Assembly (NCBI GenBank): GCA_963848295.1
Contig: CAWKDB010000011.1
Coordinates: forward strand, 256,001-320,000
Length of the DNA stretch: 64,000 bases
Reading direction: 5' to 3'
Source of the DNA: an uncultured delta proteobacterium
GTDB lineage: Bacteria; Myxococcota_A; Polyangia; Haliangiales; Haliangiaceae
A model generated the notes under the pieces. The model saw nothing but the letters and a program-made list of their open reading frames with translations, was not told the origin of the DNA and made no database searches. Shown one piece after another: positions 60,592 to 63,540 of this stretch. The position numbers and the translations under genes are program-made. Numbering within the stretch: position 1 is the first letter of the stretch; each line of letters starts with the position of its first letter.

Positions 60592-60993
60592 ATGGGGGCT
60601 CGCGCCATTTGCACCGACTGCATCACCGCCCCGGTGATGGTGTGCGGGCGCTGCCTGGTGACGCTGTGCGAACGTCACGCGCTGGCGCCGAACGAGCGTT
60701 GCGCCGCGTGCGAGCGCGACTGGGGCTGTGACGCATCGACGCGACGCGCGGCGAAGATGATCTTCGCGCCGCCGATCGCGCTGCTGTCGGGCGGGCTGCT
60801 GTTCGGGTTGTTGCTGCCGGTCTCGATCGGGGGAGCGATCGGCGCCGCGGTGATGTGCACGCTCGCGTGCGGTACGGGTGTCAGCGCGGGAGCCGGCGCG
60901 TGCCGGCTGTTCGATCGATCGGCGCGTTCGGTGTTCTTGCGCGAGCGCACGCTGGGCTTACCGCCCGCGCGGCTGTTGCCGAAGCACCGCTGA
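60592..60993 (+). CDS. small Zn-finger (B-box-like) membrane protein
   Basis: CTDC..CGRC..LCERH..CAAC followed by two hydrophobic segments. Confidence 0.6.
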   Translation: MGARAICTDCITAPVMVCGRCLVTLCERHALAPNERCAACERDWGCDASTRRAAKMIFAPPIALLSGGLLFGLLLPVSIGGAIGAAVMCTLACGTGVSAGAGACRLFDRSARSVFLRERTLGLPPARLLPKHR

Positions 60994-61079
60994 CCGTCAG
61001 TGGAATCGGATCTCCGGCCGCTTCGGCTTCGGCTCGTTTGAATCCGGCGAAGGGTGCCGGAATCATCTCCGGCGCGCGC

Positions 61080-61400
61080 TCACCGCGTGAGCCGGAACAG
61101 CATCGCGCGCACGCGATCGAGTGGCGCCTCGATCGCGGCGAAGTCGTCGGCGGTGATGTAGCCGCGCGCCTTGGCGATCATGAGCGCCGTCGACAGCTCG
61201 CGCGCGCTGCCGAAGGCGCGGCGGAACATGTCGGGCCGGTCGAGGCCGGCGCGTGCGCTCGCCTCGGCGATGTTGAGCGCGATGCTCTCGGCGGCGCGGC
61301 CGATCTCGTCGGCGAGCGACTTGCGCCGCGATCGGAGCTTCGGCTCGATCGGAGCGAGCTGTTCGAGGACGGTGAGCGACTGAGCGAGGACGTCGAGCAT
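61080..61400 (-). CDS. four-helix-bundle protein (23S rRNA IVP / Avd-like family), copy A
   Basis: LADEIGRAAESIALNIAEA...FRRAFGSAREL matches the family pattern DQ..RA..S...NIAEG...A.GS..E; AAAGG RBS before ATG at 61400. Confidence 0.88.
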   Translation of the reverse strand: MLDVLAQSLTVLEQLAPIEPKLRSRRKSLADEIGRAAESIALNIAEASARAGLDRPDMFRRAFGSARELSTALMIAKARGYITADDFAAIEAPLDRVRAMLFRLTR

Positions 61401-61422
61401 TGGCGTTGCCTTTCGTGGATGA

Positions 61423-61623
61423 GCGGCGCACCGATCGCCGGGGCCGTCTCGCCCGTCGCGCCGCACTCGCGCCGGCGCCGTGACGAGCGCGGGCACAGAT
61501 CTCCGCACGCGTCGGTCGATCCAACTCTGCGGCGGCCGCTCGCAGGCGTCGGTGGTCTCGGCGCTCGGCGCGGTGCTGGCGCGAAGCGGCGCAGGGCGAC
61601 GGCCACGGCGAATCGGAAGCCGC
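61423..61623 (-). ncRNA. putative structured leader (long hairpin) upstream of four-helix-bundle gene A
   Basis: Outer pairs GCGGC/GCCGC, CCGAT/ATCGG, CGCCG/CGGCG, GGCCGTC/GACGGCC; core shared with 61912-62108. Confidence 0.6.
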
Positions 61624-61638
61624 GGGTGCGAAAGGTGG

Positions 61639-61884
61639 CGGCATCGGCATCGGCTGCGGCGACGGCTGCGGCTGCGGCGACGGCGGCGGCTGCGGCGACG
61701 GCACCGGCTTCGGCTGCGGCGACGGCGGCGGCTGCGGCGACGGCACCGGCTTCGGCTGCGGCTGCGGCGACGGCTACGGCTGCGGCGGCGGCTGCGGCTG
61801 CGGCGACGGCGACGGCGACGGCGGCGGCTGCGGCGACGGCGACGGCTGCGGCTTCGGCGACGGCGACGGCGACGGCGACGGCCT
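61639..61884. repeat. (CGGC-NN)41 hexamer array
   Basis: 41 consecutive in-phase units with invariant CGGC and variable NN (GA, TG, GG, TT, AC, AT, TA, CT). Confidence 0.95.
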
Positions 61885-61911
61885 TGGAACACTCGACGCT
61901 CCTTCGCTCGC

Positions 61912-62108
61912 GCCGATGGGCGGAACGTCTCTCTCGCCCTGCGCCGCTTCGCGCTTGTCCCGCGCCGAGCGCCGAGTGCGCCGGCGTGTGAGAGCGACCG
62001 CCGCGGAGTTGATCGGCCGGCGAGTGCGGTGGTCAGCGCCCGCGCTCGTCACGGGACCCGCGCGAGTGCGGCGCGACGGGCGAGAGAGAGACGTTCCTAC
62101 CCATCGGC
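61912..62108 (+). ncRNA. putative structured leader (long hairpin) upstream of four-helix-bundle gene B
   Basis: GCCGATGGG-C-GGAACGTCTCTCTCGCCC pairs with GGGCGAGAGAGAGACGTTCC-TA-CCCATCGGC; inner helix GACCGCCGC/GCGGTGGTC; followed by GGAGG RBS. Confidence 0.65.
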
Positions 62109-62129
62109 CACTCACCTCGGAGGATCTTC

Positions 62130-62453
62130 ATGTCGTTCTACGCCCTCGACTTCGCCCTCGCCGTCCTGCACCAGCTCGCCCCGATCGAGGCCAAGGTCCG
62201 CCGCACGCGCAAGTCACTCGCCGACGAGATCGTCCGCGCCGGCGAGAGCGTCGCGCTCAACCTCAGCGAGGGCCGCATGCGTGTCGGGCTCGATCGCCCC
62301 GACTTCTATCGCCGCGCCGCCGGCAGCGCGAGCGAGCTCACGACCGCCCTCCTGATCGCGCGCGCCCGCGGCATCATCTCCGCCGAGGACTTCGCCGCGG
62401 TCGACGAGCCGCTCGACCACGTGCGCGCGATCCTCTGGCGGCTCACGCACTAG
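62130..62453 (+). CDS. four-helix-bundle protein (23S rRNA IVP / Avd-like family), copy B
   Basis: LADEIVRAGESVALNLSEG...YRRAAGSASEL; 67/106 identities to copy A by manual ungapped alignment. Confidence 0.9.
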   Translation: MSFYALDFALAVLHQLAPIEAKVRRTRKSLADEIVRAGESVALNLSEGRMRVGLDRPDFYRRAAGSASELTTALLIARARGIISAEDFAAVDEPLDHVRAILWRLTH

Positions 62454-62633
62454 CGCTTGCGCCGGCCGCCGCGCCGGCGAAACCGATTTCGGCGCCCTTC
62501 GCGCAAGGCAACAACAACCCGGAGCGCCTGGAGCGCCGAGCACCCAAGCGGCGCGGGGTGTCAGCAAGAGAACGTCGCCTCGTTAGCAGCAGGAGCTGAT
62601 AGATGTGTCGCCGATGTCTCGAGCAGTTCGCGA

Positions 62634-62771
62634 CGGCGACGGCGACGGCGACGGTATCGGTATCGGCATCGGCATCGGCGTCGGCGACGGCGTCGGCTTC
62701 GGCGACGGCGTCGGCTTCGGCGACGGCGTCGGCTTCGGCGACGGCTCCGGCGACGGCTTCGGCGACGGCTT
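62634..62771. repeat. (CGGC-NN)23 hexamer array
   Basis: 23 in-phase units CGG(C/T)NN, including a repeated 18-mer CGGCGA-CGGCGT-CGGCTT. Confidence 0.93.
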
Positions 62772-62775
62772 CCGG

Positions 62776-63540
62776 TCACGCGACGGGCTTGATGCCCATC
62801 GCCTCGAGGATCTCGCCGACCACCATCTCGCCGAGGCGTTGGATCTGCTGCTCGCCCTCGGCGACCGAGGCCGCGGCCGGATCGCCGGCGTACGCGAGCT
62901 CCATGCCCATCGCCTGAAACGTCGTGACGCCGGCCCCGAGCTGATCGCTCAAGCTGATCGGCACCGGCGCCAGCACGCCGCGCATCGAGTCGTTCACGAA
63001 CTCGGGAGCCGCGGCCATCATGATCGAGGTCTCGTAGCGCCCGGCGTGACACTGGCCGCTCTTGAATTCGGCAGATAGCGTACGCGCCCAGCGCTTCGTC
63101 AACGGGCACGCGACGATGACCTTGCTGCCGCGACCCTCGAGCACCGCGCGCACTGCGGCGTCGTGCGCTGGCTCGAGGTGGTTGTTGACGAGGCACACGT
63201 GGCGAAGCCCGCTCGCGAGCAGGCCGTCGCACACCGCCGCGAGGTACGCGGTCAACACCGTCGCAGGAATCGACACCGCGCCGGCAAACCCGGTCGCGCA
63301 CTCGGTGACGCCGTAGCTGACCGCGGGCGCGATCACGCCGACCATCGTGCCGCGCTTCTCCAGCAACTCGGCCGCTCGCAGGCAAGCCGCGGCCGAGATC
63401 ACGACGTCGGTGCCGAGCCCCAGGTGCGGGCCGTGCGGCTCCGTCGATCCGATCGGCACGAGCGCGATGACGCCGCGCTTGCCGCCTACCAAGTCGGTCA
63501 GGCTCGCGGTGGTGTGGCGAGCCAGGAACTTTTCGGTCAC
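62776..63540 (-). CDS. creatininase family protein
   Basis: [30 protein letters not shown]. Confidence 0.9.

Follow-up and report, generated by a model that had tools for sequence, protein, structure and literature searches.

The 64,000-nt window analysed here, from an uncultured delta proteobacterium (contig CAWKDB010000011.1, positions 256,001 to 320,000), contains an insert with two divergent genes, A and B, which encode four-helix-bundle (FHB) proteins, are each preceded by a long hairpin leader and are accompanied by arrays of the hexamer CGGCNN (Table 1). The basic unit is an array, a hairpin leader and an FHB open reading frame (ORF), and inverted doublets of two paralogous units recur. 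Apart from the 3' hairpin, this layout of paralog pair, leaders and arrays agrees with an earlier note made from the sequence alone, including the exact array sizes of 41 and 23 units. The two cassettes align as an inverted repeat (539 columns, 77% identity), and the insert ends display by eye neither a terminal inverted repeat nor a consistent target duplication. The insert lies in a neighbourhood composed of DUF507, a conserved 133-aa gene and a creatininase gene. No RNA run is listed among sequencing runs that contain it, and short-read contigs cover parts of the locus, none of them spanning the whole.

Table 1. Features of the insert and of its borders, numbered from the first letter of the window
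Feature	Positions	Strand	Remarks
Host gene, 133 aa, without Pfam match	60592..60993	+	Its stop codon is the left insert border; orthologs in 21/21 relatives
Whole insert, ~1.78 kb	60994..62775	.	Flanked by two convergent host stop codons
Short left remnant of CGGCNN array	61015..61034	+	Long at 5 other copies
3' hairpin of gene A	61040..61064	-	9-bp arms with one mismatch, 7-nt loop; motif after 8/10 A copies
Gene A, FHB protein (PF05635/TIGR02436)	61080..61400	-	106 aa, isoelectric point 9.9
Leader A, long imperfect hairpin	61401..61635	-	Covarying core 61453-61597; predicted pairing over ribosome-binding site 61409-61413
Central array, 41 CGGCNN units	61639..61884	+	Other copies 109-405 nt; strand polarity identical in all 10
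Leader B, long imperfect hairpin	61895..62129	+	Covarying core 61936-62079; predicted pairing over GGAGG 62119-62123
Gene B, FHB protein (PF05635/TIGR02436)	62130..62453	+	107 aa; model matches 2GSC, 2RLD, Avd
B tail	62454..62630	+	Small GC hairpin 62461-62478; unpaired A-type 3' motif remnant 62485-62499
End motif within B tail	62614-62630	+	Common to 5/10 copies
Right array, 23 CGGNNN units	62634..62771	+	Polarity as in central array
Host creatininase-family gene	62776..63540	-	Its stop codon is the right insert border

Proteins, leaders and arrays of the cassette

Both proteins score above the cut-offs of PF05635 (53.9 bits for A and 45.1 for B, cut-off 33.8) and TIGR02436 (50.8 and 45.6, cut-off 24). 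They are about 66% identical, a global alignment giving 68 identical residues where 67 of 106 had been counted before. The structure model of B is a confident four-helix bundle (predicted local distance difference test score, pLDDT, of 95), whose best structural matches are 2GSC (Xcc0516) and 2RLD (BT_0352) with template modelling (TM) scores of 0.79-0.84. Avd (4DWL, 8UB7) is matched at TM 0.83-0.84 with 11% identity, and 2GSC is the sole sequence match at E 0.001. Homology predicts an Avd-like pentamer. To our knowledge, PF05635 is a large family without known function outside diversity-generating retroelements (DGRs).

Each leader forms a hairpin that closes upstream of the start codon and folds better than shuffled sequences (z -5.9 for B and -4.5 for A, 0/200 shuffles being as good), which bears out the structured leader proposed directly before each gene. 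The leader core comprises three short helices around a conserved internal loop and is kept in 39 distinct leaders, with 97% of cells paired, 53 two-sided changes and 0/500 shuffles scoring as high; the two-sided changes are the better evidence, since the 39 leaders were chosen by a pattern that demands part of the core pairing and so inflates the paired percentage. The invariant CGTCA is internal to the leader, which is about 230 nt long and tied to the ORF. A covariance model, run under strict filters with 26 candidates scored per genome in place of a loose motif search (201 genomes, mostly noise), finds 23 sites in this genome, each upstream of family genes, 7 sites in one other member of the genus and none in the remaining 119 genomes of the phylum. 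The possibility that other family members lack leader and arrays, raised in the earlier note, did not hold. The model marks the sense strand upstream of the gene at 51 of 63 related loci, a number that includes many training sequences.

A search of Rfam with 60900-62900 gave neither a leader nor an rRNA match, its single hit being a chance microRNA match in the array. No sigma-70-like site occurs on the linear strands of the region in a scan restricted to this type of factor, no intrinsic terminator was found there, and no AT-rich box was seen in the aligned leader arms. By eye, the leader core resembles what we take to be the sigma-54 consensus. The template strand folds better in 37/41 leaders with DNA parameters and in 31/41 with RNA parameters, leader A following this trend, and the sense-strand mismatches outside the core are pyrimidine-rich (70 C.T versus 6 A.G). 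The leaders being related to one another, this strand bias is suggestive of a fold adopted by single-stranded DNA.

The 3' hairpin described after each ORF is intact after A, while only its sequence motif remains after B. Across the copies in this genome, the motif follows 6/10 B genes and pairs well in 1 of those 6, and the hairpin is not supported as a defining flank of the unit.

On the strand that is sense for B, the left, central and right arrays alike read CGGCNN and so are direct repeats, and their length and content differ from site to site. Among 46 merged CGGCNN arrays of this genome, 26 lie near (within 700 nt of) a family gene, and most of 15 arrays inspected by eye away from family genes resemble coding PT or GS linkers. 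Inspection by eye further indicates that most copy ends abut a host stop codon and that copy ends fall in the variable arrays. The NN positions take many values, and the occurrence of AA in only 13 of 366 six-base units rules out DGR-type adenine mutagenesis as the source of CGGCNN.

Copies of the cassette and the fate of its sites in relatives

The genome under study (Kofleriaceae-type, 7.8 Mb in 11 contigs, 85% complete) carries the divergent A/B pair at 10 unrelated sites, one of them with a truncated A, in addition to one diverged pair, one single gene and one internally deleted copy of the same family (hereafter family 1). Intact A copies are 94-97% identical to A of the window, and B copies 93-98% to B. 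The dN/dS ratio among copies is 0.13 for A (9 copies) and 0.17 for B (10 copies), and leaders diverge by 8% (A) and 4.6% (B) as against 18% and 16% at synonymous sites. These comparisons indicate that ORFs and leaders alike are under purifying selection. About 150 nt of palindromic sequence is repeated in tandem downstream of the single family-1 gene (C10:1111.4k, L081).

The earlier note had proposed a unit copied and selected as a whole. The 10 dispersed copies, the purifying selection and the empty or decayed orthologous sites described below support this for the unit, but not for a rigid pair. Indeed, the copies are mosaic, 62% (A) and 54% (B) of informative site pairs being incompatible and neighbouring sites showing less incompatibility (p 2e-4), and the distances among A copies are uncorrelated with those among B copies (Mantel r 0.14, p 0.29), which leaves rigid co-copying of A with B unsupported. 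Furthermore, two A copies that predate the split from the sister genome, G306, show 16% synonymous difference versus 29% for flanking orthologs (Fisher p 0.018), the same comparison for B giving 22%, which is not significant (p 0.24). At the C10:512k site, the A gene of G306 is 85.7% identical to its ortholog and 87-88% identical to paralogs. Mosaics and homogenisation most likely result from gene conversion, under which selection need not act on each copy separately.

In the protein tree, A copies group apart from B copies and the neighbours of B include other species; the root as drawn carries no meaning, the family-2 row being probably out of frame. The 77% inverted repeat formed by cassettes A and B could in principle stem from a single inverted duplication that arose recently and locally in a spacer rich in microsatellites, an alternative that the earlier note itself had named. 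It is refuted by the 10 dispersed pairs and by the separate grouping of A and B, while the arrays are direct rather than inverted and the insertion predates the species split, and we accord it next to no probability.

The gene order DUF507, 133-aa gene, creatininase is kept across the genus. In distant relatives, 21/21 orthologous regions are without A or B at the junction, several having merely 12-40 nt there, and none of the 20 relatives' intergenic stretches inspected holds a hexamer array at that point. The sister genome G306 (90% complete, with flanks 91% identical to ours) retains at the window site a 175-nt relic made of a few array units, half of the 3' hairpin of A and a piece of A, which indicates that the insertion is older than the split of the two genomes. 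The locus is not fixed and syntenic in relatives, the outcome that the earlier note had named as speaking against its reading. The 133-aa gene itself has an N-terminal cysteine-rich segment and always occurs near DUF507 and creatininase, and the junction beside it is a hotspot of varied insertions across the genus.

Other sites of G306 are in diverse states. A decayed A cassette is found at C10:512k, a solo array at C2:1180k, and empty, array-free sequence at C10:1501k and C10:4855k, none of the 3 empty sites having an array; other genes are present at C2:1461k and at the A side of C2:861k. All 5 family matches of G306 are partial or broken. At C2:1180k, the filled site of our genome has a 6-nt sequence repeated at both ends, the only site at which such a repeat was seen; the comparison of orthologous sites yielded empty sites without a consistent target duplication. 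Arrays acting as pre-existing landing pads are mostly unsupported, the empty sites being without arrays with the exception of the solo one. The left flank of C2:610k and the right flank of C11:441k are neighbours in G306 (L341, G306:C854), 12 nt apart, which points to an exchange between two copies in our genome. The comparison covers sites other than C10:727k, and the left junction of C11:441k and the right junction of C2:610k lie beyond the contig ends of G306. Filled, empty and decayed sites imply a rapid turnover of the family by gain and loss, and the cassette doublet very probably behaves as a population that is gained, lost and homogenised across Kofleriaceae genomes.

A genome scan identified 63 loci, most of them in assemblies of Kofleriaceae, other Myxococcota or deltaproteobacteria. 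Protein B is matched in 19/24 genomes of the genus and was not found in the other 5. As to unpublished genomes, alignments A2 and A3 hold one protein of G010, and G010 or G066 is counted in the genus tallies (B homologs, gene order, reverse transcriptases, Y1 genes); no regions from either were used for the results on empty sites, the sister genome or covariation. About 10 divergent doublets occur in G275 and five convergent ones in G276, built from other paralog pairs and with array sequences of their own, the array sequence thus being lineage-specific. Doublet partners are 35-66% identical paralogs. Single cassettes also occur among the related loci, so the doublet is successful without being obligatory. 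The convergent doublets of G276 (L212-L216) enclose an array of 25-30-nt palindromic repeats, with hexamers on one side and 7- or 8-mers on the other. Locus L183 holds a close homolog, accompanied by two leader matches, on a short contig whose title names Gemmatimonadaceae, a case of horizontal transfer or mis-binning. Phage and plasmid collections gave no match, nor did a metagenome scan for a close strain. In a literature search whose coverage excludes most subscription journals, FHB genes with leaders and arrays were not described as a mobile family.

Candidate partner enzymes

The earlier note suggested that a reverse transcriptase (RT), an HUH transposase or a nuclease might act on the unit in trans. 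No enzyme gene travelling with the unit is linked to it at the window locus. Neighbours were surveyed as 95 ORFs beside 51/63 loci, the other 12 being repeats of loci already seen, and they comprise no RT and three Y1 transposases. RTs are found in 24/24 genomes of the genus, their types varying, and none was found in the more distant G027, G037 and G040, which are 89-92% complete and hold 3-11 homologs each. The full-length RT matches of our genome look like group II intron RTs and are located far from family-1 genes. The evidence for an RT partner is negative.

Introns adjoin only a second multi-copy FHB family of this genome, which is unrelated to the first (~33% identity). It is found at C2:271k, C2:437k, C2:797k (L003), C10:261k, C10:2647k, C10:3176k, C10:3467k, L086, C10:4056k and C11:722k, and has short inverted hexamer arrays and, lying 5 nt inside a CTAG, sharp 15-nt terminal inverted repeats. 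Two miniature copies, at C10:2117k and C10:4408k, are devoid of the gene. In several copies (L003:1060-2750; C10:3468k, C10:2117k, C11:721k, C10:4056k), the terminal repeat is the exact position of a group II intron, and many copies are intron/gene chimeras.

The picture is different for transposases. With a dedicated profile, RAYT-like genes were detected 0.4-0.9 kb from 6/62 related loci in 4 genomes, whereas we estimate that chance would give 0.3-1 loci (Poisson p 3e-7 to 6e-4). One RAYT subfamily of G278 has 4 readable copies, each of which adjoins a CGGNNN array at an identical junction, and three of the 4 have a cassette on the other side. Arrays flank 7/70 RAYT loci versus 2/300 random positions (p 2e-4, or p 0.011 once the three loci detected via the FHB gene are set aside). 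At RAYT loci, the leader is confined to those with an adjoining FHB cassette, and Y1 genes are present in 24/24 genomes of the genus. A neighbouring transposase was found at some related loci and is missing near the copies of this genome. Taken together, the evidence for an HUH enzyme is suggestive but mixed. As a separate observation, the members of the G278 subfamily (L224, L227, L230, L236), which are 94-100% identical, hold at the junction upstream of the gene a sequence nearly identical to the invariant motif in the 3' arm of the leader. The multi-copy RAYT-like genes of our genome (C10:3040k, C10:3446k, C10:3657k, C2:1374k, C10:1439k) have an upstream hairpin of their own, about 150 nt long and unrelated to the leader.

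Relation to known elements and possible modes of movement

The nearest parallel is offered by REPINs, the doublets made up of REP (repetitive extragenic palindromic) sequences mobilised by RAYTs. According to the accessible parts of PMC3116915 and PMC3733652, these are non-autonomous and extragenic, often lie behind stop codons, consist of imperfect hairpins and succeed as an inverted doublet of non-identical partners, the doublet being the replicating unit (PMC3116915, same parts). Our cassettes likewise are dispersed extragenic doublets, with 10 A/B pairs and 1 diverged pair versus 2 singles here and further examples in G275 and G276, and RAYT-like genes are enriched beside related loci. They differ in being about 1.8 kb long, protein-coding and under selection at the protein level, while the REPIN palindrome is non-coding and measures 20-40 bp, and the leader showed neither a GTAG nor a CGTC tag at its ends. 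As for RAYTs, none is flanked by leader or arrays in this genome, where Y1 genes are themselves multi-copy; flanking by a repeat is seen, in the form of arrays, for the one G278 subfamily.

The 23S rRNA intervening sequence (IVS) of Coxiella encodes a protein of the same PF05635 family (S23p) and is, in the sections of PMC4990558 available, a selfish, horizontally acquired element whose stem is cut by RNase III and whose ORF is decaying. Our cassette by contrast lies between protein-coding genes and not in rRNA, has a conserved ORF beside the hairpin and not in its loop, and forms dispersed multi-copy doublets with hexamer arrays. With the DGR protein Avd it shares the fold and a cis stem-loop next to the gene, to which Avd binds through flipped-out bases in the part of the preprint consulted (bioRxiv 10.1101/2023.10.23.563531), whereas neither an RT nor a template/variable repeat pair lies near the cassette and the array variation is not adenine-specific. 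Xcc0516 and BT_0352, the best structural matches, have no assigned function, and no leader, array or mobility is described for either in the literature searched. Frpo/ssi promoters resemble the leader as long imperfect hairpins before an ORF that tend to fold better on the template strand (PMC9849209, available excerpt), a tendency that leader B itself does not show. They differ from it by their -35/-10 boxes, which were not found here, and by their location in the plasmid leading region, while the cassettes are chromosomal and multi-copy. Insertion sequences and miniature inverted-repeat transposable elements differ from the cassette, which by eye is without terminal inverted repeats or consistent target-site duplication, the 6-nt repeat being confined to a single site. 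By analogy, the cassette would work most like a protein-coding REPIN, yet it belongs neither to the REPIN-RAYT systems, nor to DGRs, rRNA IVSs or insertion sequences and their miniature derivatives.

The reading that we tentatively favour, short of calling it probable, is a non-autonomous element whose movement would pass through single-stranded DNA, its own protein serving as cis factor and an HUH enzyme acting in trans. The leader would fold on the template strand while the DNA is single-stranded, and the protein, bound to the core of its own leader, would serve in cis as an accessory factor, which would explain selection on every copy. Cutting and joining would be carried out by a host-encoded RAYT-like Y1 (HUH) transposase. 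Ends would be resolved inside the hexamer arrays, which would then grow and shrink by slippage.

Several observations weigh against this reading. On the side of the enzyme, no more than the 7/70 RAYT loci mentioned above have a 10-unit array and 4/70 have an FHB gene, three of these having been found via that gene, and none of the 14 RAYT segments in our genome adjoins a 10-unit array or has a family-1 gene within 60 kb, so that the linkage that defines RAYTs and REPs is missing in this genome. RAYTs beside arrays or FHB genes are scattered over a quickly made RAYT tree, as would be the case if mobile elements accumulated at neutral sites. Many cassettes are present in G275 and G189, where that RAYT type had no match and only a different Y1 type occurs, and a DDE transposase lies inside the arrays of G275, in line with arrays that may simply collect mobile DNA; the ends of a DDE insertion sequence recur there inside hexamer arrays beside doublets (L159, L166, L169). 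Furthermore, Y1 genes are equally present in the 5 genomes of the genus without a match to protein B. On the side of the DNA, leader B folds slightly better on the sense strand, outside the core G.T mismatches are about as frequent as A.C ones (28 vs 31), and the orientation of copies relative to the replichore (8/10) is not significant (p 0.11).

An explanation that dispenses with a dedicated enzyme combines host recombination and replication slippage between arrays or microhomologies with gene conversion and horizontal transfer. It is in keeping with the direct orientation of all arrays of a doublet, with the solo array at one G306 site and the 6-nt repeat at both ends of its filled counterpart, with mosaic copies, two of which swapped flanks, and with the lack of an enzyme gene travelling with the unit. 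We nevertheless regard it as rather unlikely: most empty sites are array-free (the 20 intergenic stretches and the 3 G306 sites), arrays away from family genes mostly look like coding linkers by eye, and recombination alone leaves the selection on ORF and leader core unexplained. Movement through RNA, in which the protein would bind its own leader RNA as Avd does and recruit an RT in trans, the cDNA then inserting or converting and fold-back yielding doublets, seems to us unlikely. The Avd-like fold (TM 0.83), a cDNA that would correspond to the better-folding template strand, the pervasive gene conversion, the presence of some RT in every genus genome and the entanglement of the second FHB family with a group II intron all speak for it. 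It has to contend with the RT-free neighbourhoods of related loci, with full-length RTs here that read as group II intron RTs and introns that adjoin the second family only, with three relatives that have several homologs and in which no RT was found, with array NN positions that are not adenine-derived, and with doublet partners that are diverged paralogs rather than fold-back copies.

A domesticated host function would have the copies kept for dosage or for a conditional role, for instance Frpo-like expression from single-stranded DNA in DNA uptake or stress, mobility being incidental. Purifying selection on all intact copies and the long imperfect, putatively template-strand hairpin before the ORF, which is the Frpo promoter layout in the excerpt of PMC9849209 at hand, agree with such a role. 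Frpo, on the other hand, rebuilds canonical -10 and -35 boxes, and the region has no sigma-70-like ones; the family has decayed in G306 and was not found in 5 of the 24 genus genomes, and it has no match in phage or plasmid collections. These points make a host function quite improbable.

Returning to the non-autonomous element with its own protein as a cis factor, a broader view of the family may be taken, which we consider doubtful. IVS-protein- and Avd-like FHB proteins may be the cis component of an undescribed class of mobile elements, in which a pentamer would bind a hairpin of its own single-stranded cassette, recruit a nuclease or polymerase in trans and make or use the end arrays; Avd and the 23S rRNA IVS proteins would then represent members of this class that were domesticated or left stranded. 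The locus supplies a protein, a covarying cis element found only before it, and filled, empty and decaying sites, which together make the function of PF05635 testable, and the copies are points of rearrangement in these genomes. Should the protein license movement in cis, the cassette would be a transposase-less, protein-coding mobile element and would offer an origin for Avd.

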